Shown here piece after piece: positions 1 to 39,989 of a stretch of DNA of 64,000 nucleotides. The translations under genes and the position numbers were made by a program. How positions within the stretch are numbered: position 1 is the first letter of the stretch; every line of letters starts with the position of its first letter. The notes below the pieces were generated by a model. It had not been told where the DNA came from. It ran no database searches and saw nothing but the letters and a program-made list of their open reading frames with translations. The DNA comes from Nemertoderma westbladi (taxonomy: Eukaryota > Animalia > Xenacoelomorpha): contig JAUCBJ010007004.1 in assembly GCA_032718475.1 (NCBI GenBank), positions 1 to 64,000 of the forward strand. The letters run 5' to 3'.

Positions 1-19
1 ATTGGTAACCTTCCGTTAG

Positions 20-608: not shown

Positions 609-1156
609 AGAAGATACGCCAGGATTCCGTGTCACCACTTCGAAAGGAATTTTGTTCCCATGTCAACACTTCGAAAAGCCATGTCGACACATGGCTTTTC
701 TTTGTTTTTTATTTGCTTTTTTTTGTTTGTTAACACAACCAATATTACAAAATAATAAAATAAAATAATAAAAACGAACACCAAGTGTTTTATATTTTTT
801 TGTTACCATTCTGCGTAATTCTATCAATTCTGCCCAAATACTAGACAATGTTGGTTCCTTGAATGGTGTAGAGAATTGTATGTACAGTAGTACATCAGTT
901 TTATATACTGTATAGTGTATATAGATAGTTTATATTATTACCGGTTTGTTGTTAGTTATACTATAGTTTTCTTAGTCTCGTAAGATGCTTACAGTATATT
1001 TTAGGTTTGGAAAGTAAACTTACAATAGGCCTACATATGATGTTTCAATTTGGGAAATTCGTGATGATATATTCGCGGTTAGGAATCCTTCCCAGTATTA
1101 CCGGTAAATGATACTACCGGTATTGGTATTTGTAACTATTCAGCCAATATCGTACT

Positions 1157-4100: not shown

Positions 4101-5799
4101 TGATGAGCTTGAAAAACTACGCATTGACATTGTCAATGAAATGTTGCAATTTAAAGAAGATATTCCACTGGACTACCTAAAATTTGAGCAATACATTTGT
4201 GAAATGTTAAATCAGGGAAAAACATACATAAATATCAACGATCTTTTAATTAATCTGAGAGAAATACATATTGATCTTATAGATATTGGTTTGTCAACAA
4301 TGCTCAACTTTTATCACGATATCGGAATGATTGTTTATTTCGATGAGGATGTGTTAAATGATTGGGTCATTTTGAACCCACGATGGTTGATGGATATGTT
4401 TTGTAAAGTCATAACTGTTAAAGATAAAATATTGAAAGCTCATCGTCTCCTATGGAAAGATTTAGACGATAATGGTGTGCTGCATGAGGGTCTAATTAAC
4501 TACATGTGGAACGATGTTATTGATGACAAGATGTTCTTATTAAATATTTTGGAACGCTTTGATTTGTTATGCAAAAGAATCATTCCACCAAGTACACTGT
4601 CTACAGAAAGTTCTACACCCGAGCTCAGCTACTATGTTCCATGTCGTCTAAAACCAAGGGCAACAGAGATGAATCATATTATTATGAAACCTACAGATGT
4701 AGAATTCTATTTTGTTTTTAATGGCTTTCTCCCAGACAGCCTATATCATAAGTTGATGAAAAGGACAATTGAATGGACATACATTGTAGCACCCACGATA
4801 ATATCGCCGAGACTCTACAATAGATGTGCCATCATATATTTGGATGAAGAACACGAGCTCGTCATTGAGAATGAAAGAAGATCTTTGTATCGATTAAAAG
4901 TTCAGATTATTCGTAAAGTTGCGAACCAACCTACTCACCAAGGGATAAATGCTGCATCACCACCAGATCATCAACGTGTTAAATTAATTAAACATTTTCT
5001 AGTGAACACATTGAACGACATAGTTGGTTTGACCAGGATGAAAAATGTTACATATGAAATAAAAATTAAGTGTCTCTGTCCAGCCCACTGCCAATCACAT
5101 AATATAAGTTATTGCAAAAACGGCCAATGCCACCATTTTTTAAAACTCGATGACTGTCTTAAAAGTAAAATAATATCGTGTCAATATCATGGAAGTTGTG
5201 ATGTTACTATTTATCAGAAATGGTTTGGCTTGGTTTGTGAAAACAATTTATCATATTTAGAGAAAGTTAACCAGTGCCAAAATGAACTAACTGACAGACT
5301 AGAACCATTAAAACTCTTAATACACCTGGAAAGTAAGTCCGTATTTACAAAAGAAACGCTTGACTACATCAAATCGAAATGTACAAAGTTACGAATGAGT
5401 AGAGCAATTATTGAAGGAATTAAATGGAGATCTTCTGCTGAATATGCAATATTTCTGGAATGCCTGGCAAGTACCAACCAGGTCCATTTAGTTGATTTGC
5501 TGGAAGGCAATTGTGATGCAAATAAAAACCAATTCCACGATATACTGATAACAAATAAAGTTGAATTAGTTGACAACATTGAACTAGACGACATAGTGTT
5601 GGCTTATCTTGTAAGTCACCATGTCCTGACAACTGATATTGCTGATGACATCAGATCACAGAAAACGAACTTGAGTAAGAAAAGTTACCTTATAGATGTT
5701 ATTATGAAGAGAACTCAGGAGGACTTCTATGTATTTTGTGATTGTTTAAAATATACTGGGCAAGACCATTTGGTGGAATTTATGTTGAACAATCAATAA
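1157..5799 (+). CDS. ROCO protein, WD40 repeats - Roc GTPase - COR - CARD - CARD; exons 1157-1994 and 2564-5799, about 1357 aa
   Basis: The donor G|GTAACA at 1994/1995 and acceptor TTTAG|GA at 2563/2564 are both phase 1. They rebuild a WD40 repeat (HPDNKYFLIG-NGDGTIRCIDI). Roc motifs are GQERAGKTS, TDGID, DFGGQ..YYSTHQIFL and VGTHKSK. COR motifs are FYHDIG.IVYF and VILNPRWL. Two ~85-aa death-fold repeats ending F..CL..T.Q.HL are CARD-like. Further upstream exons are possible (acceptor-like ATTCAG at 1143). Confidence 0.88.
1995..2563 (+). other. Spliceosomal intron (569 nt, phase 1) of the ROCO gene
   Basis: GT...AG ends with a pyrimidine tract; removal joins ORF 1157 and ORF 2539 in frame. 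Confidence 0.85.
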
Positions 5800-12370: not shown

Positions 12371-14674
12371 TATTTGTTATAACTACTGTACATTAGCAAC
12401 TCAAAACTATACTATAACGAACATTATAATATCAAAACTATTACGAAATTAAACAATAGAATTGGCTCCGATTTTTCAACTCTCTAAAAATAATGAAATT
12501 TTCACTAAAAATACTGAGATTTTCACTAAATCCAATGCCAAAAACACTAAAAATAATCTCATAACTAAATAATTCATTTATATATTATCAATAAAAATTA
12601 TTCCAAATCCACTAAATAATGATTTATTACTAAATATGATCGATTATCACTAACAATAAATATATTATCGCTAAAATTAAATTTTTATCACTATAACTAT
12701 TCACTATTGATTTAGTCACTAAATATTCAGGGTGTACGTACAGTAGGCTAATCACTATTTTAATATGAATAGGCGATTGGCTACTGTAGAATTAGGTCCC
12801 ACCAGAGCAAAAAGGATCAGGTTTGTAAAGGGGCGGAACAGAGAGGCAGCGTTCGGGGAACCAAATCAACAAACTAATTTTAACATGAAGGTTAGTATAC
12901 AGTAGAGTTACGACCTGAAAAGAGTTACTTTAAGATTGTAAGTTTAAAGGGTAGGCATACAAAGTCGTTAGGTCCTGCAGCATTAGGTCCATTTTCAGGG
13001 AAAGGATCAGGTTTCAGAGATGTATTATTCTAACCTAAACAATAAGCAAAAGTCAATAACACACATTACAATTTATTTTTGCTAGAAAACAGTTGTAAAT
13101 AAAAATAGAATTGCTACAAAATATAATACAAATACAATAACCTAACAATGCAGGATCTAATAACTAAAGTACAACCGCATTACCACTTATAGCAGAAGTG
13201 GGCCCTAATTCGAAAGGTAAGAGAAGGAAATGATTACTTAGTGGGAAATAAATACAAGAAATCAAAGCCAATCGAAGACAATAGAAATGACTAGAAAGAA
13301 ATAGAAATATAAGCGAATAGAAATAGTTACTAATCAACTACTCAATAGTTGTCAAGTTCGAAACATTGCTCCATTAATTATATTCTGATGGGTACTGTAG
13401 TGGATGAGGCTACTTACTATATAATTATAGGGCTATCAGTATTTTCCTTTTTATCTGATGCAAAGATTCCTTCACAAGCCAGTTTTATTCGTTCTGCAGT
13501 TGCTGGACTATCGAGACGAAAGATACGTTGTTCTCCTCGGTAAGCAGCTATAGCTTCTTTAATGGCGAAAAATACACACGAGCTCAATAGAAGTGGCGCC
13601 TCACCAATACCCCTGGCTGACAAGAACCCGGCGTTTTTTATGGATCCATCATTTAGTAACTTGACATTAAAAACCCTGGGAATGTCAACCACTGATGGAA
13701 TCTTGTAGTCACTCAACGATCTTGTAAATTTCTCCCCTGAGCGAGAACACCAGATTGCCTCAGTTGTATGTAAACCCAACCCTTGAATGAACGCGCCTTC
13801 TATTTGTCCAATATCAATAGCCGGATTCAAACTGTGTCCAACATCCATAACAATATCTGCTGCTATAAACTTAAATTCACCTGTACGACAATCAACTTCC
13901 ACTTCACAGACAGCAGCTCCTGATGTTTGATGGTCCACAACTCTTCCATCATCCAAAGCATTAGGATAATGACCAACAGCTGATAAAGGTATCCTTGCTA
14001 GGTATGCGGCTTTGACCCACGATACCCAGTCACCCTCCACATTTCCCTCTCTGAATGGCCTCAATCTTTCTTTAAGTATCAAACTTGCATGCAATAAAGC
14101 TTCCCCGGCTAATTCTGTACACCAACTTCCGGCTGAGAGAGTTGCATTCGGGGTTTTATCTGAAGCAGTGTCACCAACTCTTACAATACCCGCATCCACA
14201 TCTAATGTATCGCTTACAATCTGGATCATCTTAATGTGGAGACCTTGGCCCATTTCAACACCAAGGTGGTTAATAATAACAGACCCATCTGTATATATAC
14301 ACACCAGGCAACTTGATTGAGCCATGCTATGTGAAGCAAGTAAAGAAACACCTAAAGCTTTTACAAGGATATAAATTCCTCGTTTGATATATTGATTTTT
14401 TGAATTAAAAGCAGAAACTTCATTTTTCCTTTTATGGAAATTGCTTGCCTGAATACAACGTTCCCAACATATTTGTGCATTGAATTCATCGATAATCTTT
14501 CCATTGTGTAAGTGGAGTACATCACCTATCTTGTTAAAATTTATAGCTTGTACTTCATAAGGTGGGATATTGCAGGCAATGGATATATCCTGAATCCAAT
14601 TGTCGACAAACCAACTTCCTCCAATAACTGATATCCCCCTCATTGCTCCATTACTTGGCCAGTTGCTTTGGCAA

Positions 14675-15869
14675 TGTTCGCGCTTTTGAAGACCTTTAGC
14701 AGTTTAACCTGCCAAAATTTATATGTCTTTTAGTTAATTGAAACACCTTTAGCATACGACAATATTTTATGCTAATACACAAAACATTACCCGAAGTCAG
14801 CCCATGCGCGATCATTCACCCGATGGATCTACACCCGGGAGGCTGAATTCGGCTGCTTAAATTTTATTATTGCAGTGTAAGGTTGCAGTGTAAACCTACT
14901 GTATTATTCGATAGATCGTTAATAATTAATTTCTGACAGATATTATTGGCTTTCGGGAAATATTAACAGTTCCTTTAGGACGTGGCGCTCTATCTATTTA
15001 AACAGAACTAGGACTTATACTAAACGCAACGATACTGCTTATGATTAAAGTATAAAGCGCATTCTTTAGGAAATACTTTGTTACCAATCACAATCATGCA
15101 CACTATTCTGCCGACCGTCAGTATATTTGATCACATATAAAGAGAGCAGCAATTGACTCATGTAGGGTCTGCTAAATAACATTAGATTCAATACACACCA
15201 CATTAATATAAATCGCAATTGTTATATATAGCCTGTCTCTCTAACCTGTAGTGTATCAAGAAAATTGGGAAATTTGGGTGATTTATCCGTATTATCCAAA
15301 GAGCAATATTTCCATCAACAAATAGATACAATTAATAACTGACGGTAAATAACAGTACAAACAATATGATTAATAGTGAGTTAAGATTGATTAGTTAGGT
15401 GATTTAAGTTAGGTAACAGTTTATACTTTCGATAATTTAAGCAGTTTTACTAGAGTTCTTCCCAAAAAGCCGGTGTTATGGCGAAAATGGGAACACAACA
15501 ACAGAATCATATAAAATCACATGACTAGAATGACTATACGAGTATACCAACTACCCTTATTCCCCGAAGCTCCCGTCCAACACAGAGGATGAGCAGTGAG
15601 ATAGGAAATTCAGTTCAGTAGCTCTGGGATAGGTCGAAATCAACGCCCACTCAAATTCTATTGGCCGATACGGACAGCAAGGCTAAGGCAACCTCTCTAA
15701 GCTAGTTGGCCGATTAAACTGAGCCCAGATATCTCCGTACAGCACATCAGCCAATAAGCTGGTAGCTTGCACTATTTTAGTTATAAATCCCTTTGAGAGT
15801 ATTCTAGCGACTGGGGGGGAACTGGCCAGCAAAGGCAAACGTATCAGTTATCCCACAAAAGCTTTTACA
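14675..15869 (-). repeat. 3' LTR of the BEL/Pao element
   Basis: Matches 36143-37337; I saw three transitions between the copies. Confidence 0.96.
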
Positions 15870-15947: not shown

Positions 15948-18900
15948 TTAGTCTTTCTTGCGCGGACGGCGTTTACGCAGTTTTTTAAAGCTAGCAAGAG
16001 TCCTTTTCTCTTTGGGGCGAGCCACTTTACGAGGAGGGCTATAACTCCTGGGTGAAGGGTGCAATATGATTGCATCAGAAGGTATGGGATTACGATCGGT
16101 ATATCCGCCGGTCGAAGTACCGGGTTGATTGACATCAACGTCCGGGGAGAGGGGTCTAACGGCTTTGAGAGCTCGTTTCAAGACAGCCGCTCTTACGGGT
16201 TCTTTACGAGTGGTCTGAACGAGGGCCGTGGGTGGACCATAGGCAGTTAGAAACTTCCTTGGTTTAATGGTTCTTTCCAACTCGCGTTCGCGGGCTCTGT
16301 ACTCGTAAGGCCGTCGATATACTTCTTGTAACTCGGGGTGTGAGTTGACAAATAAGTCTCCATAGGCCGGATCTTGACGGATAAAGTTTATTAAGTTGTA
16401 CGAATTGATGTCACTCGGATTAATGCTCCTGAGAAATTTGCGTACATATTTGGTTGAAATACATTCTCCAACACGCTTCAATAGTTCATAACTTGATAGG
16501 CGCGATTTCTGCTCGACGGAGGCAAACAAATAAGGATGGAACGCATAAACTCCTTCGTAAGCGCGTCCAGGATAATAGCGATGGCGTGAATCACAATGTA
16601 AATCAGCGTTCGCTTCCCAAGCTCTGATATAACGTAGTACAATCATTTCATCTACGCTCTCTAAATCATGGTTAAAGGGACAATCAAAGCTGGCGTGTCC
16701 TTTTAATTGACAATGATGGCATTGAGTCATAAATTGGGGGCAGACAGCAAAAATGTGCAAATTATTAAGCCGACAATATGCACAATAGATTTCCATCGAC
16801 GGTTGCTCGTGGAAGTAGGAACAAAGATCGTTGGTGTCCATAGACGTAATATGGTCTCTCGATGCGCACAGCCGACAACGTTGTCTAGAAACATAATTGG
16901 CATGGCGATAATCATACGCAGTAAGACACTGGGGACCTTGATACCATTCCAATATGTAGTCGCTATCGCTACTCCGAGACGTGGGGGGCTGAATCTCTTC
17001 AGATTCTAAACATATGGGTTCGTCTTCCCCTTGTATAGTTGAGGTAGGCGTGGCTGTCTCCTCAAGTGGACCTACCGTCTGAATTTCCACGACAGAATAA
17101 CCTGTGGGGATCCGAGGTCTTTGGATAACCGAGGAATGCAGGTTCATTATACAAATGTCTTTGAAAATAGCAAATCCAGCGCTATCTAACTTCTCCGCAG
17201 CCGAGTCTCTTAAGCTGAGCTTGGTCAAAGCGCGGTCTTTGAATTGGCTATCCATGTTGCGAAACGGGGTTAAAAACCGGCGGAAACATTCAAAGCGGAT
17301 GAATTTATTATGTTCATCTAGCTTAGCGAGTTTGGTCCCAAGGATTAATGGATGGGCGCGTATAGTACGACTGCACACATCGGCTAGCCAACCGGAAAGT
17401 GCGGTGTTTTCGAAGATCGTGTAGATAGCTAAGGAGGGGCGGAATGGAACACTCATGAAGCTATACACGGCGCCAGGTGCGGTCAACGGTCCGTCAAAGT
17501 ATAATCGAGAATAATGGTCTCCGTATACTTGTTGATAGTTGATGGGATTTCCGACCTTGAAATTCCACCCGTATTCCTGAAAGGCAAGATGTCCGATGGA
17601 AGTTCGTTGCACCTTTGTAATGTTGCTAGACGCATTAGCATACATGGTGCGAAAGAAACCTCGGCCTTCGGCCCAAGGAGCTATCAGCTGAGTATCCACG
17701 AAAGGATAGGGGATATTCTCCATATTCCGAAAGTCGTTTTGGAGATCTCCGTAAACAGTTGAGCCGATTTTAATGATTCTTTCGTTGAATAACATCTCGA
17801 GAACGGGCTGGGGTAACATTGATCCATCGATACCCATGGCCGGTTTGCGTTCGGTGTCAATGACGTAACGCTGCGCGAGTTCGAATTGTCCATGTCGGAG
17901 ATTCCTTTGCGTTTCGGTGAGAGTCTCAAAGGAATAATCGATCACGTCGGAACACGCTCGCGTAAACACGTGAGTGGAGCCAGCTAATCTGCGTATGTGT
18001 ATCATGCGCGTAGTTCCTAATTCTCCGATTGGAACGCTACCTTCGTTATCGTAAGTAACAACGCCATACATCTCAATGATATTAAGAGTTTCATTCCACT
18101 CTTTGGTGGCGTTCTCGAGGGTCATCCCTACCGGATGCCACAAGGTGGCGCATTGATTAGCGTCAGGGAGATCACTATACTTCATATATCGAGTGGTATA
18201 CGTCTCCACATTTCCATATCTTTGGATTTTCTCCTCCTCGAATAATACATCTAGATTCCAATGGACTAATCGAGTTTTAATAAATCCATCGAGATTATAA
18301 GGAGGTTCTGTATCCTTCTCTATTCGAGAAACGTTATATGGTTTTCGAAATGAGTTTACCTTTACTAATTGATCCAGATGTTTTTGCAATTGTTCGAGTT
18401 CGACAATGTCCAGAGGATTTATTAGTGGTAGAAACTTTAAATTATGCGTCGGATCTTCTGGTTTTACCATATAATATTGAGTCAGATTAACGTAATAAGG
18501 GTGATCTTTAATTCCATAAAAAGAGTTCTGTAAAGGTCTAGCGCGTATGTTGACATCGTGTACCATACGACGGACAAGATCCGCTCGATTGTCCGGAGGT
18601 TCAACGAGTATACCGTCAACTCGAGCGGCCTCGATTGGCGGACGCTGTAACATAGGAGCGTCAGCGATAAGATTTTGCGATCTTATGCTGATATCAAGCG
18701 GTTGGGGTTGTATCTTTGCGAAAAGTTTGTCTCTGAAATGCGGAACCATCGAGGGATGACGGACGGTTTTAGAGTAGAGATCGGTTATGAGTATCTGAGC
18801 TTCGGGTTGGGCTAAAGCGGCTTCTTCTCTCTCATCCATTTCCGTATGTTTCTCCTCTAGTTGATTTTCCTCCGCTTGTTTCTGTAAGCGTTCTTCTAGA

Positions 18901-20201
18901 AACTCCTGTAGAGAATACGTACGTCCAAGCTCGATGTCCTCTTCGAGGTTTTGGATTTCTCTATCAAACTGCGGCAAGGCTAGCTCTTTCACCGATTGGA
19001 CCTGCTGCTGTAATTTACGTTTCTCTAGAAAATCCTGGGTTCCCTTTCCGATTTTCTGTCGGATGGCGTCTAGAGCGTTTCTGATGACACTCTCCTCGAC
19101 TTCCGTGGCAGGTTGTATCGGAGTTAATCCTGGCCGATTGTAAGGATTAAATGGGGATGTTAGATGCCCGCGTCCCAATCCGGTTAGATAGGATGGTCGA
19201 ATATCTAACGAACCTACCGCTGGAACACCACCGATTAACTGCTCGGGTAACACCAAATCTTTGAACAGTGAATATAACTCGGGAGAATCAGTGATACTGT
19301 TAGGATCAAGAGTTTGAGGTCTCACGGGGAAATGGGGAGGCCTGACCGAGTATTCCGGAACTCTGATCATGGGTTTATTTAGCGATCGTTTTAGACGGGC
19401 GATCGTAGGTGATACGTCGAACAGGTTTCGCTCGAAACTCCCGTAAGTATAACGCGTAAAACTGTGTTTAGCACAACGTCTCCGCGGATGTTTATGTCTT
19501 TCCGTTTGCTGGTTAGGTCTAGGACATGAGTCACAATAATACCAAAGACGTACGTCCTGCAGAGGAAACGCGGGTGATCGTTCTCCAGTTTTGCAATACT
19601 CTTCCATTTGTTCAAAGCTGTCCGGGACAACAGGCAGTGGACGATCTGCGGTAAGATACATCATGGTGAAATAGAGTCGTTTGAGTTCTACCATGGGATC
19701 GTGATGTATACCTTGAGGATATCGAGTCTCTAGGTTCTGTTGACTGGCAATATTGAGATAGGTTTCTCGCAAAAATTCCAAGTAGTCGTTGAAGTTGATA
19801 CGCTTATCGGGTTCTTCAACGTTTTCTCTGTCGAGTAGGTTGCGAATAGAGTTCTCGTGTTCTATTCTCGGTTTATCATTACGATTCCGCTGGGCATGAT
19901 ATTTAAATAAAACCATTTCCCTTTCGGTGTCTACATCATCAGTATCATGTAAATCGGTAGGATGGCCGGTAGTTAAGAAGTCCATATACGTACCATTACG
20001 ATTCGTATAGCGAGCGGTGAATTTTCTATAGTCCAATTCACGCGTAAGTTGTTCTTGGGACATCGGCGGTTCGATATAACGACCATCGTCCTCCGTAATA
20101 GTCGGATCGGCTTCACCGCGTATCAAGCTATCCACAAACGCTTGTAAAGGTAGAGTATATCGCTCCCTGATACCAAGGTCATCTTCTATCAATTCCGTCA
20201 T
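15948..20201 (-). CDS. Accessory ORF3 of the BEL/Pao element (1417 aa): coiled coil, DEDDy/RNase D-like 3'-5' exonuclease, three CCHC knuckles, basic C-terminus
   Basis: The ORF is intact and lies between pol and the 3' LTR. Exonuclease motifs are VVTYDNEG (ExoI), LFNERIIKIG...YGDLQNDF (ExoII), FVDTQLIA, SIGHLAF..YG..FK and YTIFE (ExoIII-like). Knuckles are CRLC-x4-H, CAYC-x5-H-x4-C and CHHC-x4-H-x4-C. It ends KKLRKRRPRKKD. No signal peptide or TM segment seen, so it is not env-like. Confidence 0.8.
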   Translation of the reverse strand: MTELIEDDLGIRERYTLPLQAFVDSLIRGEADPTITEDDGRYIEPPMSQEQLTRELDYRKFTARYTNRNGTYMDFLTTGHPTDLHDTDDVDTEREMVLFKYHAQRNRNDKPRIEHENSIRNLLDRENVEEPDKRINFNDYLEFLRETYLNIASQQNLETRYPQGIHHDPMVELKRLYFTMMYLTADRPLPVVPDSFEQMEEYCKTGERSPAFPLQDVRLWYYCDSCPRPNQQTERHKHPRRRCAKHSFTRYTYGSFERNLFDVSPTIARLKRSLNKPMIRVPEYSVRPPHFPVRPQTLDPNSITDSPELYSLFKDLVLPEQLIGGVPAVGSLDIRPSYLTGLGRGHLTSPFNPYNRPGLTPIQPATEVEESVIRNALDAIRQKIGKGTQDFLEKRKLQQQVQSVKELALPQFDREIQNLEEDIELGRTYSLQEFLEERLQKQAEENQLEEKHTEMDEREEAALAQPEAQILITDLYSKTVRHPSMVPHFRDKLFAKIQPQPLDISIRSQNLIADAPMLQRPPIEAARVDGILVEPPDNRADLVRRMVHDVNIRARPLQNSFYGIKDHPYYVNLTQYYMVKPEDPTHNLKFLPLINPLDIVELEQLQKHLDQLVKVNSFRKPYNVSRIEKDTEPPYNLDGFIKTRLVHWNLDVLFEEEKIQRYGNVETYTTRYMKYSDLPDANQCATLWHPVGMTLENATKEWNETLNIIEMYGVVTYDNEGSVPIGELGTTRMIHIRRLAGSTHVFTRACSDVIDYSFETLTETQRNLRHGQFELAQRYVIDTERKPAMGIDGSMLPQPVLEMLFNERIIKIGSTVYGDLQNDFRNMENIPYPFVDTQLIAPWAEGRGFFRTMYANASSNITKVQRTSIGHLAFQEYGWNFKVGNPINYQQVYGDHYSRLYFDGPLTAPGAVYSFMSVPFRPSLAIYTIFENTALSGWLADVCSRTIRAHPLILGTKLAKLDEHNKFIRFECFRRFLTPFRNMDSQFKDRALTKLSLRDSAAEKLDSAGFAIFKDICIMNLHSSVIQRPRIPTGYSVVEIQTVGPLEETATPTSTIQGEDEPICLESEEIQPPTSRSSDSDYILEWYQGPQCLTAYDYRHANYVSRQRCRLCASRDHITSMDTNDLCSYFHEQPSMEIYCAYCRLNNLHIFAVCPQFMTQCHHCQLKGHASFDCPFNHDLESVDEMIVLRYIRAWEANADLHCDSRHRYYPGRAYEGVYAFHPYLFASVEQKSRLSSYELLKRVGECISTKYVRKFLRSINPSDINSYNLINFIRQDPAYGDLFVNSHPELQEVYRRPYEYRARERELERTIKPRKFLTAYGPPTALVQTTRKEPVRAAVLKRALKAVRPLSPDVDVNQPGTSTGGYTDRNPIPSDAIILHPSPRSYSPPRKVARPKEKRTLASFKKLRKRRPRKKD

Positions 20202-20244
20202 ATCTGCTATCTGAGTTTATTAATATCAATATGAGTTAATTTTT

Positions 20245-26300: not shown

Positions 26301-27957
26301 TGTTTGGCGAAAGTAGTTTGGGGAAACTCATCGTTGATGTCCTTTTCGTGAGTAAGTGCTCGATACACCGCGGTGTTTATTAGATAACAGGATTCATTGG
26401 CGTCGGAGAATTCGTCAGTATAGAATCCTTCCATCTCAGACTCTTGATCGGTGTCATTTACGTCACTAAATTGGACATGTAGTTCGGGCTCACTTACCTG
26501 ACTCTGTTTGTCTCGTTCAAACTCACTGTGTAACAAGATGTGATGTTTCGCGCCACACTTTTCACACTTTAGGTCGGAGTAACAGGTTTGCCGTTGGTGT
26601 CCTGGTCTGAGGCAATTATAGCATAACCGCTTGTCCCACACAACGGTACGTCTGTCGATAAGTGATTTCTTTAGAAATTCCGCACACGCACTCAAACGGT
26701 GGGTCCCGTCGCACAGCGCACAGTTAGGTTTTATGTTACTTATTTTACCTTGGGTAGTCTGATGCACTCTCGTTCTTTCTTCGGGCTTTCTTCCGCGCAT
26801 TCTACTAGGAGACTGAGGAGGGGTCTTAGCAATCTGTTCTCTCCTATTGTTGGTTCGAGCCTTGTATTTACTTACGTCCTTTGAGGTTTTGTCAACATAA
26901 TAAGATCGGTCTGTATCTTTCCCGCTGTCCTCTTCTTGGGAAGCTTGGCTTTCGCCGTCGTCAGTGTAACACACCGGTGTTACCCTTCTCCTAGAAGTGG
27001 GTTTCTCACTTACCTTATTTTCCGATGTTTTCTCTCTGGACTGCTTGATGAGTTGTAGTTTGACTTCGCCATCTAAGAAAGACATGAGATCAGCCATGGT
27101 AGGACTTCGTCGTTGTTGTTCATTCATGTACAACACTTTCTTGTCCCAGCGTGTACATACTCCACCCTTTGGTAAAGTAGAGACTACGGCTCCAATAACC
27201 ATGGAACTCTGATATTCGTGCGACTTACCTAACCAGTCCAGTTGTCTACAGATCTCTTGAATTTCATCGGAAAACTCTATAATCCCACTACTAAGGAAGT
27301 GTCGGGGGGCTACTAATTTGGCGTACAAATACTTAGCTATGTTATCCTTGTTACCATACCTGATGTTTAATGTATCCCAAACTTGTCTTAATCCTTCTGG
27401 ATGTCCAATAAACTTTAACGCCATTAACTTGGGAGGTCCTTCCAAGCACTTGATGAGGAATCTAAGTTTCTCTCCGTTAGATAGTACAGAGTTCTGTATG
27501 CTATCTTTGTAATATTCGTTGAAAGGTAACCATTTCATCTCATCTCCATTGAATTTGACGATCTCTCCCACTTTGACAGCTTGGCGGGCTTCTGTTCTAG
27601 CCATCTGACGCGTAAAGCTTTCTTGGGCCATCGTGTTATTTAATATCGAATTATCGGTATATAAATTTCTCGGATCTGTTGAAGATATATAAACAGTTAT
27701 AGATAATCCAGTAACTCAATAATATAGTATAATAGCTGACAGTCAAGTTACAGAACTGCACACAGACCTAACACAACTGACAACTGCACAACCTCCTACC
27801 TACCGTACCTGTCCAACCGGTAGGCCTACACCTGATACAGCAACACTAGTACTGTACTGTAGTTTTTCCTTTCTTGTACTACCGTACTATCCCAGTGGCA
27901 TGGCCTACTATATGTCTCACACAATTTCCCAACACCTCCCACAGTTTTATAAACTTT

Positions 27958-28285
27958 TTAGTTTTCAAATCCATATCGCTTTGGGGGCCTAGACATTCGG
28001 CCTGAACGCGTAACGACCGTGGGTGGAGCAACCCCTATTGGTATCTCATCTTCATCATCTGTAGGGTCTATTTCATCGTATGATGTTTCATCATCTGTAC
28101 TATCAACCTCCGTTTCCGATTCGATATCAATTACCCTTTCAATTTCATTATTCGTATTTAATGCTGACTCAACCTGATTTTCTGCATGCGAAACTTTCAT
28201 CGACTTTCTAACATCTTGAAGGTGTCGGCGTATTCCTTTCACTATCACTGAACGTTCCTGTACTTGATCGACTCTATGAGGTCCC
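27958..28285 (-). pseudogene. Out-of-frame integrase C-terminal remnant (GPY/F-like) of the nested element
   Basis: Reads GPHRVDQVQERSVIVKGIRRHL...TRSGRMSRPPKRY, a typical integrase tail. Confidence 0.75.
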
Positions 28286-30484
28286 TTTTTCTACAAAAAC
28301 AGGATTAGGGTCTATGCTATTGCATTGATCACATTCTGTGCATATTTCATTCACTAACTTCTTTGGCACAGTTCTAGAATTTAATTCTCTATCAACGTTA
28401 CATAACTGCATGGTTCTGTCTACACCTTGGTGCGCTAATTTGTGTAAATATGTAACACGCTGACGATTGTTTACATTCAATTCCTGTATATCTCCCATTG
28501 CAGCGAATGCATCATTATTGGTTTCTTTTACATCCTTATCACGGCCAAATTTCAACCAATGTGATGGAATTCTAGTTAACGTGTCCGATAAATTTTTCGC
28601 TGATTCAACCCGATGCGGTCGGATTTTTAATTTATATTCTACTATGATCTCGCTCAGTATATCCAATCGACGCTCAATGAGCTTTCTCGCCTGACCTTTA
28701 GTTCGAATTCTGTGTGTGTCGAAAATAACAGCATTCACCCAGCTATACACGGTTGATGAATCAATAAAGAGATTAACTACTTTTATGTTCCAATCCACTG
28801 CCATGTTAATTCCCTCAATAACCGCATCTAGTTCTGATACATTTATGTGTTGGTTGTCACTTTCTTTGCGAAGCCATGATCTGTCTTCAACTACAACTCC
28901 GTCTATCTTTATCAATGCTCCCTTTGCAATTGAGCTGGCGTCAGTCCATATATCTGCGTGATCTGTAGTACGAACAACCCACTCTCCTTTTACAGGATCA
29001 TTGTGACATACATTATCGATCGTTTCATTAACCAATTGTTGTAAACCATCGCCTATATAACTGTCCCATGTTACGCCCGCACTACAGTGTTGTAACCATG
29101 CACATGCTGGTCTTAACCATCCTCCCACAGGATAGTGTCCCCGAAGCTGTCCACATATCGAATGTAACTCTCTCCTAGTGGTTTTTTCTGGAACTTCTGG
29201 TAACTTTTGACTCCGTCTCCAATACAATTTATTGTTTTGTTCATTTCCACAAATTTCTAGACCGAGAACCTTACATCCATTTATTACTGGTTCAGCGTCT
29301 TTTGAAATTAACCCATAATCTTTCAGGTGACCCCTTACAGCCTCTGTAGGTATTTTATTCGTGTTTACATATACATCGTCTCTGAAGTTATCTGTGGAAC
29401 TTTGAACCTTTTCATCTTTCTTTAAAACTCCTTCAACAATACGGTCCATAATCTTTGGACCAGGACCCAACCCAAATCCCATCCTAGTAACGACATATCG
29501 CTTTCCTTCATATACAACAGTTTGGTATGATCGTAGTTCTTCTTTAATATGAATTTGCATATATGCCCAACGAAGATCGATTACAGCGGTTTGTTCTCCC
29601 ATCCTCCGCCAGACTCTTAATTTTTCATTGCAGGCAGCAGCTTCACGACCAGGTGCATTGACGACATGAGAATTCAGTTCTCTATAATCTAAGATCGGCC
29701 TTATTCGTTGTTTTTTCTCCTCATATTTTGCCATGATTGGGATGGTTCCCTTGACTTCTCCATGAATTTCCGGAGAGTATGGAACTATCCATTCTCGCTC
29801 GATCCACTCTTCCATAGCAGCTTTATATAATTCGGTGTGCTCTGGTCGTATGCGATACTCAGTCATTCGATTATTAAGCTGAGGTGGCGTTCCGTCTTTC
29901 CACTTCCACTCTGCAGTCCAATTTTTTCCATCATATACTACGCGAAAGTCTGAATCTTCTATAATAATATCGGACTGATTGGGTGCTATTTTCTTAGTTA
30001 GTGATACTTCGATATTGACTTGTTCCTTCTCTTCAATATCTAGCTGTTTAACCTCAGCCCCTACACAACCAAATATGATTGGAGACAACGTTTCAGATCC
30101 AATATGTCGGACCACATCGATTCCTAACATTACTGCCCCTTCACCCAACAATTTTTCTACCACCAATACTGGCCATGTAAAAAGGAATTCAATTGAATTA
30201 ATGGCAACGAATGTTAATTCAACCTCTCCTATCACTCCACAATGCGATTCACCGTCTAACATCGTAATTTCAGATGATCTAATACATTTTTTCACTTCTA
30301 TTCCATTTTGTTGACACCATAGTTTTGACACTAAACATCTCGAGCAGCCAGTGTCAACCAATGCGGGAATGACTATATTCATTCCTTCAAGTTGAATGCC
30401 AACTAATGGGAGATTCCCATTGTGGGGGAAACATCCATTGGCTGCGATGAATCCCCCATTCCGTTTCCCGAAGGTTGCCGCCAC
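28274..30484 (-). CDS. pol: Pol of the nested element (PR-RT-RNaseH-IN zinc finger), -1 frame relative to gag, truncated
   Basis: LVDTGC, RPILDYRELN, IDLRWAYMQI, FRDD, WTDAS, H-x3-H...C-x2-C, then a stop. Confidence 0.9.
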   Translation of the reverse strand: MAATFGKRNGGFIAANGCFPHNGNLPLVGIQLEGMNIVIPALVDTGCSRCLVSKLWCQQNGIEVKKCIRSSEITMLDGESHCGVIGEVELTFVAINSIEFLFTWPVLVVEKLLGEGAVMLGIDVVRHIGSETLSPIIFGCVGAEVKQLDIEEKEQVNIEVSLTKKIAPNQSDIIIEDSDFRVVYDGKNWTAEWKWKDGTPPQLNNRMTEYRIRPEHTELYKAAMEEWIEREWIVPYSPEIHGEVKGTIPIMAKYEEKKQRIRPILDYRELNSHVVNAPGREAAACNEKLRVWRRMGEQTAVIDLRWAYMQIHIKEELRSYQTVVYEGKRYVVTRMGFGLGPGPKIMDRIVEGVLKKDEKVQSSTDNFRDDVYVNTNKIPTEAVRGHLKDYGLISKDAEPVINGCKVLGLEICGNEQNNKLYWRRSQKLPEVPEKTTRRELHSICGQLRGHYPVGGWLRPACAWLQHCSAGVTWDSYIGDGLQQLVNETIDNVCHNDPVKGEWVVRTTDHADIWTDASSIAKGALIKIDGVVVEDRSWLRKESDNQHINVSELDAVIEGINMAVDWNIKVVNLFIDSSTVYSWVNAVIFDTHRIRTKGQARKLIERRLDILSEIIVEYKLKIRPHRVESAKNLSDTLTRIPSHWLKFGRDKDVKETNNDAFAAMGDIQELNVNNRQRVTYLHKLAHQGVDRTMQLCNVDRELNSRTVPKKLVNEICTECDQCNSIDPNPVFVEKGTS
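30397..30469 (-). promoter_or_regulatory. -1 ribosomal frameshift signal: G GGA AAC plus pseudoknot
   Basis: The slippery heptamer (30469-30463) is in the correct gag frame, within the gag/pol overlap. Stems UGGGGGA/UCCCCCA, AAUGGGA/UCCCAUU and GCCAAU/GUUGGC follow it. Confidence 0.8.
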
Positions 30485-31359
30485 GATGATGCCGCCAAAG
30501 CATTATTGCTACCGGAGACCGCATTCATATACCCTTGTCTCGTACTGTTACGGCATCCTCTCGCAATATGACCCTCCATTCCACAGTTGTGACACCTGAT
30601 GACATTTCCACTATTTCTAGCTTGAAAACCATCATAACGATCATTACCGGTGCCACCTCTATCAGCTACTGAACAATTCCGAGCCAAGTGGCCCCACGTT
30701 CCACAACGGTAACACTGAACATTACTACCAACACCACCGCTATTTACAATGGGACGAAATCCCCTTCCCCTGTGTGGCCCACCACGAAAACCAGCAGCTC
30801 CAATCCCAAAACCGGCAGCTCCAATCCCAATCCCATCTCTTCCACTTCCGGCTCTCTCTGACAGTATACGCCGAGCTTGTTGCAATAAATCCGTCCAATT
30901 TCTCCTGCTCGCCATTGCTTTAACTTCTGACCTAACGCTCTCAGGTAAACCATTCGCAAACTGAGCCGTTAACATATCCTGTGCACATTGACTATCTATA
31001 TCCTTTGTAATTAGTGATAGCAACCTCCGCAAATCTGCTAGAAACGCATCAGCAGACTCATCACTCTTTAATATCCGACTTTTAAACTTATCGTACGCTA
31101 GATACGGATTGTCAGCAAACGCCTCGATCAATCGGTCACGAACTTCATCGTAGTTATTCTTTTGCTCGTCGTCCAGCTGATTTATAACATCATGAGCTGC
31201 TCCCGTCAGCGATAGACGAAAATATGTAACTCGACTCTCTTCCGTTAGTTTAGATTCCGTTTTGAGAATATTGAAAGTATCGTCAAACGTTGCAATCCAC
31301 GAGCAGGGATCACCAGTTCCATCATACTTAACGACGTAATCCGATAATTTTGGCGCCAT
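30403..31359 (-). CDS. gag: Gag of the nested LTR element, with two CCHC knuckles
   Basis: YDGTGDPCSWI capsid-like start; CYRCGTWGHLARNC and CHNCGMEGHIARGC. Confidence 0.92.
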   Translation of the reverse strand: MAPKLSDYVVKYDGTGDPCSWIATFDDTFNILKTESKLTEESRVTYFRLSLTGAAHDVINQLDDEQKNNYDEVRDRLIEAFADNPYLAYDKFKSRILKSDESADAFLADLRRLLSLITKDIDSQCAQDMLTAQFANGLPESVRSEVKAMASRRNWTDLLQQARRILSERAGSGRDGIGIGAAGFGIGAAGFRGGPHRGRGFRPIVNSGGVGSNVQCYRCGTWGHLARNCSVADRGGTGNDRYDGFQARNSGNVIRCHNCGMEGHIARGCRNSTRQGYMNAVSGSNNALAASSWRQPSGNGMGDSSQPMDVSPTMGISH

Positions 31360-31390
31360 AACGATTTAGGTTAAACAATAGATCAGTATA

Positions 31391-31402
31391 GCCCGGTTAG
31401 CT
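31391..31402 (-). promoter_or_regulatory. Primer-binding site complementary to a tRNA 5' end (Lys/Ile-like)
   Basis: The + strand reads GCCCGGTTAGCT directly against the 5' LTR. Animal tRNA-Lys begins GCCCGG(C/A)TAGCT and tRNA-Ile(AAT) often begins GGCCGGTTAGCT. Confidence 0.65.
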
Positions 31403-34400
31403 TGTTGAAGATATATAAACAGTTATAGATAATCCAGTAACTCAATAATATAGTATAATAGCTGACAGTCAAGTTACAGAACTGCACACAGACCTAACAC
31501 AACTGACAACTGCACAACCTCCTACCTACCGTACCTGTCCAACCGGTAGGCCTACACCTGATACAGCAACACTAGTACTGTACTGTAGTTTTTCCTTTCT
31601 TGTACTACCGTACTATCCCAGTGGCATGGCCTACTATATGTCTCACACAATTTCCCAACAGGATCATTATCAGGTCTATAGGGAATATCATTAATAACAG
31701 GTCTATAATCACCCTTAATAGGGTTTGCTATAGGAGTTTCAACTTCACTAGCAGTATAGATGCGTGTAGGCTCCACACCTTGCGCATGTAATACTTCAGA
31801 CCTAACAGGTTGACACAATGTTACAGGGGGTATTGGTATGCCCCTTTGTATATTGACTAATTTGTCGCGTTCTAGCGCGATACTTTGCTGCACTTCTTGC
31901 AACTCTGCTCTACTTTCCCTCACTGTTCCCTTAAGTTGGTGGACAGTCTCCTGCATCTGTCCCAGCAGGAGATTCATCCCACGCCGTCCCTCTTCCACCC
32001 ACTCAACCGCCGAAGCGGGAGTCGCCAACATAGTAGCGGGCTGACGCGGGACGACGGGAGACAAATTTTTAATTTCTCTCTCTGCTATCTGGACAGGGAT
32101 ATTCTCTTGGACTGTTCCACCGGGTACAGGCAGTGTAGTACTATGTAAAGGGAATTTAGAGTTAAGCTCTGGAAGTACAGGGGTCTCTAACACAGAAGTG
32201 ACTTTGGGAACGACAGGCCTAATTATCTCAGGCTCATCAACTATTGTAGAGAGTCTTTGGACCTTAATACTTTGGGCTGTAGGTTCTATACTACTCAAGT
32301 CTGTGCTAGCTAGCTGTCTTCTAACAGCTGGGGGCAAATCAGGCAATTTGCGACGGTAAGATGTTTTTCTACGCCTACTTAGATGAGATCTATTTCCTCC
32401 GCCTTCAGGATCGGTAGTATCGCCTTCCTCCGAGGATGTGTATCCCTGGCGCTTGGGAGTAGATTTTCTCATCATCTGCATCTGATTAGCAGTAAACTGT
32501 TTATTTATACTGTCTTGCGTCTCGTGCAGATTTTCCAACTCTAATTGGATAGTCTCCTCAGACGCTCTCCGTTCTGCTTCTGCCACTGTTGCCTTTCTTT
32601 CGGCTTCCGCCGCTTTTCTTTCTGCTTCTGCTTCTGCCGCCTTTGCCTTTCTTTCGGCTTCTGCTTCTTTTCTTTCTGCTTCTGCTTCCGCCGCCGCTGC
32701 TGCTGCTACCTTTCTTCTCTCTATCAGTTCTTTCTTTACTTGTTCTTCTCGGACTCTAGTGAGGCGGAGTTTTTCATCACATTCAGCTTGGTTTGCAGCT
32801 AACATTTCGGCATCGATTGAGTCCAACACAAGCTTGGTTCCTTCACTATTAGGGGAAAGTCCAGACAGCCTTCTCCTCAACTCTTCGTCTCCTAGGAATC
32901 GCTGATAGTCGGACAAGTAAATGTCGATAGCGTCTCTAGTTCGCGGTTTCTCGGCGGTCTCTTCGCTTTCCGCTTGAGAAAGGGTGACATCAGTTTGTTC
33001 TTCACAGGTTGATCTCTCCGCTAGCTGGGATTTCCACTGGGCCGTTTCCTGTACTTTGAGATCTACCCGATGTAACCAAGTTTTGACAGCAACCTGCAGC
33101 GACGTGTCCTGTCTTCTTTTGGAAGTTTCCTCAAAGGCTGAGAGGATTAGTCGTATGCGTAGGGTTCTTTCGCGTATTTGATATAGCAGCTCTTCCTGCT
33201 CTTGAGGTCCTTGAGGTTGTCGAAACAGTTGTTCTTCCAATCGATCCAAGGAGCCGAAGAATCCCTGCACATATCCTGCTGCCGACCTCTTCCAAACAGC
33301 TGGATCCATTGTATCTTTAGCCACTCCCATCCTGTGTATATCTTCCCAAGTAGCCTCGGACAGATCCAACGGGAGTCCGAGTCCGGGAAAGTTCCATTGT
33401 GATTCAACAATAGATATCAATTCTTCCCTGGCGTATCCCGCGTAATTATCTTGGGTCGCTCGCTTATTCCTCGCCCAGTCGGCTTGATGTTCTTCCACCG
33501 CAATGAATATAGTAGTTAGCACTGCAGCAGGAAGGGTAAGAAGGGGGTCCGAGTAGACTGTATCGGCCATCTGCACTCCGTGTTCGGGGGTCAGCTCTAC
33601 AGTATCCGAACTGCTGGAGCTATCGGGTCGCTGGGATGTATGTTCTTGACCAAGATGTTGCTGCGATGAGACGACTGCCTCTTGGTTCCGTTTGACCTGT
33701 GCCCGAGTGCCTATGATGGACCTATGGTGGATTAGCCTAGGGTCTGATACTACTGGAGGGATGACCTTTTTTGCAGTAGGAGGTGAGCTGAACTCCTTTC
33801 TTACTCGCTCCACACTCCTATCTGAGTCACAGATAGTTGTATCGATCAGACTGTCTGACAGGTTTTGCTGAGTGTCAGACATGTTTGGCTATACAGTTGA
33901 ATGTCTACTACTATAGTTTCAGTTAAAGCAAGTCTGGTAATTCAGTATGACCGCAAGCCTAGCGATTTATTACCGATACCGTTACTCAGTGTAACGTGAT
34001 ATATATACAATATATTAGAATACCGGTATGCTTATAATATATATATAAGTATTATTACAGACTAGATTTGTCACAGAGTACCGGTATATAATTTTAGCAC
34101 AAATATATATAAATATATAATAGGCCTATCGTGAATACCGGTATGCAGCTTACACTTATAGTATATAAGTATAATTCTGGACTAGAATTAATTACAGAGT
34201 ACCGGTATGATTTCAGCTCAAATTTATAGAAATAAATATAATAAGCCTATTGCCAGTACCGGTATGTCAATTATTTTTAGAATAATTGAATTTCTGAATA
34301 TTTTAAAGGTTACTTGGATACTTTAACTTACTTTATTACGGTTATTTAAGCAGTAGTCCAACTGATATTGAGACCTAGTTGTTGTCTGGCAGGCCTACTA

Positions 34401-36142: not shown

Positions 36143-37337
36143 TGTTCGCGCTTTTGAAGACCTTTAGCAGTTTAACCTGCCAAAATTTATATGTCTTTTA
36201 GTTAATTGAAACACCTTTAGCATACGACAATATTTTATGCTAATACACAAAACATTACCCGAAGTCAGCCCATGCGCGATCATTCACCCGATGGATCTAC
36301 ACCCGGGAGGCTGAATTCGGCTGCTTAAATTTTATTATTGCAGTGTAAGGTTGCAGTGTAAACCTACTGTATTATTCGATAGATCGTTAATAATTAATTT
36401 CTGACAGATATTATTGGCTTTCGGGAAATATTAACAGTTCCTTTAGGACGTGGCGCTCTATCTATTTAAACAGAACTAGGACTTATACTAAACGCAACGA
36501 TACTGCTTATGATTAAAGTATAAAACGCATTCTTTAGGAAATGCTTTGTTACCAATCACAATCATGCACACTATTCTGCCGACCGTCAGTATATTTGATC
36601 ACATATAAAGAGAGCAGCAATTGACTCATGTAGGGTCTGCTAAATAACATTAGATTCAATACACACCACATTAATATAAATCGCAATTGTTATATATAGC
36701 CTGTCTCTCTAACCTGTAGTGTATCAAGAAAATTGGGAAATTTGGGTGATTTATCCGTATTATCCAAAGAGCAATATTTCCATCAACAAATAGATACAAT
36801 TAATAACTGACGGTAAATAACAGTACAAACAATATGATTAATAGTGAGTTAAGATTGATTAGTTAGGTGATTTAAGTTAGGTAACAGTTTATACTTTCGA
36901 TAATTTAAGCAGTTTTACTAGAGTTCTTCCCAAAAAGCCGGTGTTATGGCGAAAATGGGAACACAACAACAGAATCATATAAAATCACATGACTAGAATG
37001 ACTATACGAGTATACCAACTACCCTTATTCCCCGAAGCTCCCGTCCAACATAGAGGATGAGCAGTGAGATAGGAAATTCAGTTCAGTAGCTCTGGGATAG
37101 GTCGAAATCAACGCCCACTCAAATTCTATTGGCCGATACGGACAGCAAGGCTAAGGCAACCTCTCTAAGCTAGTTGGCCGATTAAACTGAGCCCAGATAT
37201 CTCCGTACAGCACATCAGCCAATAAGCTGGTAGCTTGCACTATTTTAGTTATAAATCCCTTTGAGAGTATTCTAGCGACTGGGGGGGAACTGGCCAGCAA
37301 AGGCAAACGTATCAGTTATCCCACAAAAGCTTTTACA
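36143..37337 (-). repeat. 5' LTR of the BEL/Pao element
   Basis: 1195 bp, matches 14675-15869. Confidence 0.96.
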
Positions 37338-39989
37338 GGCAAAGATGATTTACGATTTTGTAATTAGGAATATTATAGCAATTACCCATATTTCTGGTCA
37401 TTTTCTTAAATAGATATTCATTCGTTCCTGGCTTGTAACCACAATCTGAGTAGATATATGCCTCTGCTGCAATTATTTTTCCCTTGGAACTACACCCCAG
37501 CTTATACTTAAAGAAAATTGGTGTCCTGTTACCTAGCATTTCAAAATCTTGATTTCTGTTCATTGCATACCTAATTGGCCTTCCAAGCTTATAAGCAGCC
37601 AGAGCTACAGGTCCAATCACTACACGAGGCTTAGAAAGTTTGCCACCAAATCCACCGCCAAGCCTCTTCACCTTAATGTCTATTTTATTTCTAGGTATAT
37701 CAATTAATGAACTTAAAAAGGACTGAGTGTTAGTAAGATCTTGTGTAGCAGCATAGACAGTCATCTCATCATTTTCACCCGATGGCACACATAAGCAAGC
37801 AATATTCTCCAAATATACATGGTTTTGAGAACATATTTTGAGTTCACCTTCAATAATATGCTCAGAACTCTTGAATCCATTTTCAACATTCCCCAAAGCT
37901 TGAGTATCCGGATCTCCATAAAATGACTCTACTTTAATGGCATCTTCAATGTTGGTTACAGCATCAAGAATCTCATAACATACAACAATAGAATTTGCAG
38001 CCATGTTGGCTGCTACTTCAGATGTTGCTACAACACAACCAATTACCTGTCCAACAAAATGAACTTCTTCTGTTGCAAAAACAGTTATTGCGGAATTATC
38101 ATTCTGTCCAGGGACATCTTTGTGACAGAAATATCTCACAAATCCCATCATATTCTTTGCTTCTGAAATGTCGACTGAAATAATCTTTGCATGAGCTTCA
38201 GTACTCGTCACAAAGGCAAGGTGTAATTCATTGCTTAATTTCGGCAAATCTCCTACATACACCGACTCACCAGTGCAATGCGCCAGCCCACAATGGTGCA
38301 CCAAAGGTTTTCCTGTAAATTTGCTCTTGGAATGCCAATCACCGATATGTTGATGCGATTGAAATATAGAATTTGTTGAATACTTGTGATCCTCCTGATC
38401 ACTAACAAAATCATAAAACATTCTAAATAACCCACCAGCTAGAAATCCTTGATATTCAGGGAGCATATCCCCAAATTCTACATTCAAATCATCAATAACA
38501 CTATGTACGAGGTTTTCATCCCATAGTTTTCCAATTGCTAAAGATTGTGCATGGCTAGGTACAACAATGCCACCTTTAACGCCTCCATACACAAGGGTCA
38601 GTTTCTTTACTGTATTCGATGCATCCCGTACAACCTTATATCCACATGATAGAGGAGAAAATTGGGTGTTTGTTGGTTTTGGCCAAAGACGATGAGTAAA
38701 CAGGTTACCATATTCTTCACAACATGGAATAAACACACTTAAAACAAGTTCCATATCCGAGACATGGGAAGCAGTGGCAATCTTGTAAAAATCAGTATTC
38801 AATGGAACTACCCGTCTACATTTTGTTCCACAATCTAAAACTTCCAATGTTGCCTCACAAGCCACAAGGAGTGGTACAATATCAGATGAAGAAGGGTTAG
38901 GGGCCAATACATTTCCGATAACAGTGCCCATTTCCCTCACCGTTTTATTCATTGAATTTGTAGCCTGTATTAGAGATTTACAAAGTAAAGGTTGTTTATC
39001 TTGATTGCAAGAACGTTGAAGATGTAACCGCAAATTGGAAATAGTAACAGCAGATCCAACACAAATTCCTTCAGAAGTTATATCAATCATAGCAAGTTCA
39101 TTTACATATTCAGTAGCAATGGCGACATCCACATCATATTGTTTTAGCATGGTTAACTGTCCTCCAACGAATCTTGCTGATCCATGCTTAGTTTTGAAAT
39201 CTAATAAAGAATTTAATGAAAGAGGGAAAAATGTAATACCAAAAGGCCCATTTAATAATACATCTTTTTGCTGTTTTGATAAATCATACAATTCACTCGG
39301 ATAAACAGGATTTGATGCTTCTGAATAGGGCATGTACTCATCAGAGTCATAAAGAGGGCATTTCTGACAATGCTGAGATTCATCAGTGAATGATTGAAAT
39401 GCATCGACAATAGGACGGTATCCTGTACATCGACATAGATTCCCTCTCAGTGTATCTTCTATGTCTATAATATCAGGATTAGGGTTATTTTTCAGCAACC
39501 CATACATTGACATAACGAACCCTGGACTGCAGTATCCGCATTGTGTTCCATGTGATAATGCTAATCGCTGTTGTATGGGATGGGGTTTCTTGGTGGTGCC
39601 TAGACCTTCTATCGTTGTTATGGCAGCTAAATGGCATCGTGTTAAAGGGAATAAACATGATGACACAATCCTATGTTCTATATCTACACCACCAGGGTAA
39701 ATCTTAGAAACAAGAACATTGCAAGCGCCACAATGTCCAGTTTCGCATGTAGGCTTACAGCCTGTCAATCCAAGTTCATTACGTAGATAGTTGAGAAGGG
39801 TTGACTTCTGTTTGTCTCCAAAAATATCTTTTCTCACACCATTAACAAAGCAAATAATTGAGTCATTCATTATATTTTACTGTATCGTGGTTATAAACTA
39901 AACGTATAAATAAAAAATCGACATTAATGGCAGAAGACTGTACCCATATACTTTTTTTTCTGAAATGGACACATAAACTTAGAATTGTC

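Follow-up and report, generated by a model that had tools for sequence, protein, structure and literature searches.

A conserved 12-nt putative primer-binding site complementary to tRNA 5' ends in a lineage of DUF7047-carrying LTR retrotransposons

The window analysed here, a stretch of DNA of 64,000 nucleotides, contains an LTR retrotransposon belonging to a lineage whose minus-strand DNA would quite likely be primed by a 12-nt 5' tRNA fragment, the site located directly behind the 5' LTR being the putative primer-binding site (PBS). The position of this site, its length, its conservation throughout the family and its exact complementarity to the 5' ends of tRNAs Phe, Lys and Met are established directly. 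The literature search, which did not extend to most subscription journals, to GyDB or to Repbase Reports, where a prior note is possible, found neither this primer type nor this lineage described; this lineage-wide type of primer site is probably undescribed.

The element (27677–31660, minus strand) has 258-nt LTRs with TG..CA ends and a 5-bp TSD and is young, as its LTRs are identical. The 5' LTR (31403–31660, TGTTG..CAACA) and the 3' LTR (27677–27934) were delimited by repeat comparison, and the TSD GATCC is found on the same strand both upstream (31661–31665) and downstream (27672–27676). The LTR boundary is set in three ways, by the identical 258-nt repeats, by GATCC on both flanks and by empty-site contigs. 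As these contigs skip 3989 nt and keep five shared letters in the 4/4 runs examined, both ends of the element and its 5-bp TSD are fixed. A purine-rich tract that ends in GGGAGG and is flush with the 3' LTR (27935–27948, minus strand) is the likely PPT, G-rich tracts occupying the corresponding position in relatives. Immediately upstream of the G-rich tract, a partly palindromic motif containing GATC was found with a loose pattern in 11/37 families (L001, L002, L017, L039, L055, L064 and L071 among others) and is absent from the window copy.

The gag gene (30403–31359, minus strand) encodes a Ty3-capsid-like region and two CX2CX4HX4C knuckles, and its ATG (31359) lies 31 nt behind the 12-nt site. 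The pol gene (28274–30502, minus strand), which is in a different frame, encodes a protease, an RT, DUF7047, an RNase H with four acidic residues and an integrase zinc finger, followed by a stop. The overlap of gag and pol carries a slippery heptamer, G GGA AAC (30463–30469, minus strand), that follows the standard X XXY YYZ rule and precedes a possible hairpin; pol would likely be expressed from gag through a -1 frameshift at this heptamer. Other copies in the same organism have about 570–580 nt more at 28280–28287 (minus strand), the point of an internal deletion, which shows that the window copy has lost the integrase core; relatives of the element carry this core (PF00665). The capsid, RT and RNase H matches of the window element are below the curated cut-offs of Pfam, and the acidic residues of RNase H are kept. 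The RT motif of the window pol is FRDD (ORF residues 372–375), a form found in only one of the 44 aligned proteins, the rest having Y/F-[IVLM]-DD.

The element sits inside a BEL/Pao element (14675–37337, minus strand) that has 1195-nt LTRs with three differences and the TSD TTGCC; Peptidase_A17, DUF1759 and DUF5641 are present in this enclosing element and absent from the inner one. The BEL/Pao element has no TGG site, and the 11 nt that follow its 5' LTR, GTAACAGTTTA (36142–36132), are the perfect complement of nt 447–457 of its own LTR (about 36891–36881); it is a candidate for Tf1-type self-priming. It carries, between its pol and its 3' LTR, an ORF of 1422 aa (15948–20216, minus strand) without Pfam match, possibly an env-like or captured gene. 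The BEL family reaches a very high depth in the runs and the inner element a word depth of about 120–210 (27400–27676, 31661–32000), these depths being sums over contigs and not copy numbers. The nested BEL element splits an aldehyde oxidase/xanthine dehydrogenase-like gene (37333–39876 and 13417–14703, minus strand) that is apparently intronless over both stretches. Elsewhere in the window, a WD40 ORF is followed by a Roc-COR-CARD ORF (1136–5799, plus strand). Judging from these genes, the host is probably an animal.

The 12-nt putative PBS (31391–31402) reads GCCCGGTTAGCT on the plus strand and AGCTAACCGGGC on the minus strand, the sense strand of the element, and is of the Lys type, its complement corresponding to nt 12..1 of the tRNA. 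The initial annotation had described these 12 nt as flush with the 5' LTR and without TGG, and they do follow the LTR end (..TTCAACA, 31403) with zero spacer, no TGG being found in the 43 nt after the LTR. It had also placed their complement within one mismatch of nt 1–12 of tRNA-Lys and tRNA-Ile(AAT), which agrees with the comparison with human, mouse and silkworm tRNAs (from the accessible part of the supplement of Westhof 2022, PMC9023262): one base differs from Lys(CUU) and Lys(UUU), in both cases at nt 7, and one from human and mouse Ile(AAU), at nt 2. The window site consequently matches tRNA-Lys of the three animals at 11/12 positions, and it matches tRNA-Lys genes on viral contigs at 12/12. 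Among 61 viral loci carrying the 12-mer plus four D-arm letters, ARAGORN predicts a tRNA starting there in 57, of which 32 are tRNA-Lys. With uniform base frequencies, the rough probability that a fixed 12-mer is at most one mismatch away from one of about 60 tRNA 5' ends is 1.3e-4, and about 0.009 if any tRNA 12-mer is allowed. In host contigs aligned to a viral tRNA-Lys locus, Lys(UUU)-like genes align from nt 1, nt 7 having no readable call. ARAGORN detects no tRNA in the window and none in the 78 metagenome loci considered below.

A search with the RT-RNase H region retrieved 153 proteins (36–44% identity among the 120 of the 153 that are listed), nearly all of which carry DUF7047; the named ones originate from a barnacle, whipworms and a crab (Amphibalanus, Trichuris and Portunus, respectively). 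Matches of the lineage in the Protein Atlas consist only of unnamed clusters, and none of 29 candidates from viral contigs was a relative. An alignment of 44 proteins was used to fetch 78 metagenome loci; in the 52 usable ones the gag start was preceded by 45 nt or more, the other 26 lacking enough 5' region. Conservation of the 12-mer in diverged relatives, a point raised by the initial annotation, was borne out: the motif [A/C]GCTA-N5-GC is present between -90 and +30 of the estimated gag start in 45/52 relatives, the background rate being 0.009 per interval of this size, and the median RT-RNase H identity is 47% (36 families). Of the 46 sites thus obtained, that of the window element included, 42 are preceded by CA. 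Among the seven misses, three have the motif further upstream (L029, L031, L016), two differ by one change (L013, L044), one has a partial site at a contig edge (L015) and one has none (L047).

The 52 sites, a number that includes the window site and six sites added by eye, fall into 37 families (L029 and L030 being near duplicates). Conservation at 7/12 positions is partly circular, since the search pattern, which preset positions 1–5, 11 and 12, was itself drawn from the same loci. The free positions are nevertheless informative: position 10, which faces C3 of the tRNA, is G in 37/37 families, 30 have C at position 9, 31 have T at position 6 and 37/37 have C or T at position 7, position 8 being unconstrained. 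The information content is 1.82 bits at +12 and falls to 0.26 at +13, which lies just past nt 1 of the tRNA, and on the other side ACA precedes the site in most families. Expressed as a tRNA, the consensus is G1 C2 C3, a variable acceptor stem from 4 to 7, then U8 A9 G10 C11 and U12 or G12.

In 12/37 families, the site matches a human, mouse or silkworm tRNA 5' end at 12/12 positions: Phe in seven families, Lys(CUU) in two, Lys(UUU) in one and silkworm elongator Met in two. Both Met-type sites start with C, the complement of G12 of tRNA-Met, and this switch of the first base indicates that nt 12 of the tRNA is paired. The variant GCCTAGATAGCT corresponds to the start of a eukaryote-type tRNA-Phe found in L152. 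The commonest variants lacking a listed tRNA are GCCGCGATAGCT (11/37 families) and GCCGTGATAGCT (5/37). These GCCGCG and GCCGTG variants are 5' ends of tRNAs Thr or Phe in at least 17 of the 80 viral loci examined; they were found as such only on viral contigs and not in a eukaryote set, and what the viral loci show is only that they are possible tRNA starts. In the assemblies of three further loci (L155, L156 and L158), which are bacterial bins with stray eukaryote contigs, no tRNA starts with the elements' own 12-mers, and two other matches were found in one of the three. One contig of a bacterial bin (L158/L159) carries a Phe-type relative together with tRNA-Ser genes of eukaryote type in a tandem array, which raises the possible targeting of tRNA gene arrays and contamination of the bin by eukaryote DNA.

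Other data concern the limits and the independence of the site. The alignment of the 5' and 3' LTRs stops exactly at the site in L002, L010 and L053 and one base later in L021; the repeat runs past the site in L005 and L064, and six further alignments end at the contig end. As a held-out check, the motif was fixed before six later loci were fetched; these gave three independent elements with a gag start, and 3/3 carry the site, one matching Lys(UUU) exactly, one matching Phe exactly and one being one base from Phe. The site variants are intermixed on an RT-RNase H tree that was obtained by a quick search without L071 and L073; the window element branches beside a clade with Lys- and Met-type sites, with weak support (79). 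Lys is favoured over Ile(AAU), since the site position facing nt 2 of the tRNA is G in 35/37 families, a count whose weight is limited because this position belonged to the search pattern, and since relatives have exact Lys-type sites. The primer of the window copy would most likely be tRNA-Lys. All the sites read face an A at position 9 of the tRNA, which suggests that the lineage may avoid tRNAs carrying m1G9, a modified base at this position.

Combined, these data lead to the following scheme. The site would invade a mature tRNA or a longer 5' fragment, pairing with the 5' strand of the acceptor stem and with the beginning of the D-stem. By computation, the duplex would be strong enough to open the folded tRNA: at -20 to -23 kcal/mol, it exceeds the computed cost of opening nt 1–12, the net values being -8.5 and -12.1, and the value computed for the window site on the named animal tRNAs Lys (11/12 match) is -18.8 versus -23.1 kcal/mol. 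The RNA would then be cleaved or trimmed behind nt 12 by the RNase H of the element, by analogy with Tf1, or else by host nucleases. RNase H reportedly has a role in releasing the self-primer of Tf1 (work attributed to Levin, 1996). The 3'-OH is predicted at nt 12, within the D-stem, because U12 has its partner in the base that follows the LTR, while C13 would face an A and could not pair. This 3'-OH would face the last A of the LTR, so that DNA synthesis would begin precisely where the LTR ends. Cleavage between these two nucleotides would fall inside a stem; we know of no enzyme that makes such a cut and of no described class of 5' tRNA fragments this short. At the level of sequence, conservation and covariation among relatives strongly support the proposal of the initial annotation that a ~12-nt fragment ending in the D arm would serve as primer.

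Plus-strand synthesis may run off the 5' end of the primer and thereby re-template the site. Such copying would account for the restriction of the site to 12 nt, for the way in which it follows tRNA variants and for the scatter of these variants over the tree; selection alone could also produce the sharp length of the site and this scatter. Primer copying into the plus strand is described for retroviruses and not for Ty1 and Ty3 in the accessible text of Cullen and Schorn (2020, PMC7472051). A fuller version of the model is put forward tentatively, as one possibility: the primer would consist of the first 12 nt of a mature tRNA-Phe, -Lys or -Met, freed where the RNA duplex ends, through cleavage by the RNase H of the element itself. 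This would be a trans version of Tf1 self-priming and would constitute a fourth primer class in a widespread, unnamed lineage with a DUF7047 Pol, maybe a deep branch outside Ty3/Gypsy proper.

Other readings of the site have to be weighed against priming by a 5' fragment. The tRNA might be bound intact by its nt 1–12 and remain uncut, DNA synthesis starting either from the internal 2'-OH of nt 12, as a retron-like branch, or from a displaced 3' CCA end held by a protein. The sequence data speak for pairing to nt 1–12 and not for cleavage, and the computed energies allow the duplex to form on a folded tRNA. However, the CCA end would have no pairing partner at the LTR junction, where +1 is A or C, and a second tRNA contact, searched for in 28 Phe-type and 4 Lys-type families, did not rise above a shuffled null (best 4/28 families, the maximum of the null being mostly 3–5). 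As branch priming is, to our knowledge, not established for LTR elements either, an uncut tRNA appears unlikely. The site could also bind tRNA 5' ends or fragments for packaging, dimerisation or control of gag translation, DNA synthesis relying on another primer. The gag ATG lies 0–35 nt behind the site in most relatives, where a bound RNA could affect initiation, but the site is also flush with the LTR end in three relatives and one base on in a fourth, i.e. where the primer must end, and no other conserved primer site of the TGG type was found, which makes such a role quite unlikely.

Tf1-type self-priming by the element's own LTR RNA, in which case the likeness to tRNAs would be incidental, deserves consideration since 8 nt of the window site can pair, with one G-U, with nt 115–122 of the LTR (31539–31546, minus strand) and since the folded RNA forms that helix. 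When G-U pairs are allowed, runs of at least 8 occur in the own upstream 200 nt of 7/32 families, versus 13% for foreign LTRs. With Watson-Crick pairs, in contrast, own and foreign runs average 4.84 and 4.72 nt, respectively, and 0/32 families reach 8 within 200 nt upstream. Furthermore, the self duplex has an energy of -14.0 kcal/mol versus -18.8 to -23.1 for the tRNA, and self-priming predicts neither exact matches to four tRNA species nor a conserved site beside LTRs that cannot be aligned; it is very unlikely. Finally, the 11/12 match of the window copy to named animal tRNAs might on its own reflect chance likeness or a one-off tRNA remnant, a reading that family-wide conservation, the held-out elements and the switching between isotypes refute and that retains hardly any credibility.

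If the 12-nt 5' fragment does act as primer, it would be a further primer type, present in about 36 families of elements with a Gypsy-like gene order and a median identity of 47%. Very short 5' tRNA fragments would gain a concrete function, and cleavage of a tRNA within its D-stem would be indicated. It would also be clear why pipelines restricted to tRNA 3' ends should miss the site in this lineage, for which the 12 nt offer a simple annotation marker.

The lineage can be compared with several known groups. The initial annotation suggested a link between the Troyka lineage and such PBSs. The window lineage and the Troyka elements or Kuafuorterviruses are all animal LTR elements with a PR-RT-RH-IN order and short LTRs. 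According to the available portions of Kojima (2025, PMC12440569) and Gong and Han (2024, PMC11673190), Troyka elements have CG..CG ends (CGCCA..TGGCG), a 3-bp TSD, a CX2CX8-10HX4C zinc finger, mostly a single gag-pol ORF and an [IVL]ADD motif. In contrast, the LTR of the window element is TGTTG..CAACA and that of most relatives ends in ACA; the TSD has 5 bp (GATCC in the window element, GAGTC in L053); gag and pol are in separate frames and gag has two CX2CX4HX4C knuckles; and the RT motif of the 44 aligned proteins is YIDD in 20, YVDD in 16, YLDD in 3 and of F-type in 5. The primer site also differs, as one Troyka-type element, in the part of the Kuafuortervirus supplement available, carries TGGTGGCAGCGG behind its ..TGGCG end, an ordinary site of the TGG type for tRNA-Leu's 3' end. 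The accessible text of the Troyka paper (Kojima 2025, PMC12440569) has no mention of primer, PBS or tRNA. Membership in Troyka is rejected on termini, TSD, zinc finger, RT motif, gag/pol layout and primer site, and the suggested link is not supported.

The features shared with Metaviridae (Ty3/Gypsy) include TG..CA LTRs, a 5-bp TSD, a gag with capsid and CCHC, a pol in the order PR-RT-RH-IN (the integrase core being found only in relatives) and a PPT. Metaviridae have an 18-nt site complementary to a tRNA 3' end (ICTV profile, PMC7879559), whereas the site of the lineage has no complementarity to tRNA 3' ends and its Pol carries DUF7047. The best match of its RT among solved RTs is a retroviral Gag-Pol (E 3.4e-15 over 146 profile positions), and Ty3 matches the lineage only in the integrase region (E 1e-10). 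The motifs GFGL, DYRELN, DFRELN and LRKAY have no match in the available text of the Gong and Han supplement, which includes an RT set of 418 elements and in which alignment gaps could hide them. As judged by gene order and profile matches, the lineage is Gypsy-like in gene order and distant from solved RTs.

As regards priming, the available text of Neumann (2019, PMC6317226) distinguishes three primer types in LTR elements, i.e. the 3' end of an intact tRNA, a half tRNA cut in the anticodon stem, known only in Copia, and a self primer. Truncated tRNAs used as primers involve the anticodon arm and only Copia in the accessible parts of this paper and of Kojima (2024, PMC10886601), which also attribute half-tRNA priming to the plant Osser, Bryco, Gymco-II and Bianca and to the fungal Copia and Helenus. 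The systems of Drosophila copia and yeast Ty5 likewise use a 5' piece of a cut tRNA, with no complementarity to the CCA end. However, half-tRNA Copia elements pair with the anticodon stem-loop of a tRNA cut in the anticodon stem, whereas the window lineage pairs with nt 1–12 of tRNAs Phe, Lys or elongator Met, with a primer end predicted in the D-stem, and no conserved match to nt 13–73, anticodon stem-loop included, was found. Its gene order is also PR-RT-RH-IN, the integrase zinc finger following RNase H, and not that of Hemivirus-type elements, in which IN precedes RT. In Tf1, Tj1 and sushi, the site immediately behind the LTR likewise pairs with a short 5'-terminal RNA piece, which must be released by a cut to provide its 3'-OH (Guo 2015, PMC4600332, in its accessible part). 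Tf1 takes this primer in cis from its own mRNA, whereas the window lineage would take it in trans from a host tRNA, self-pairing being restricted in the window copy to the 8 nt with one G-U. Taken together, priming in this lineage would work like half-tRNA priming and like Tf1 self-priming, and the lineage would be a member of neither group.
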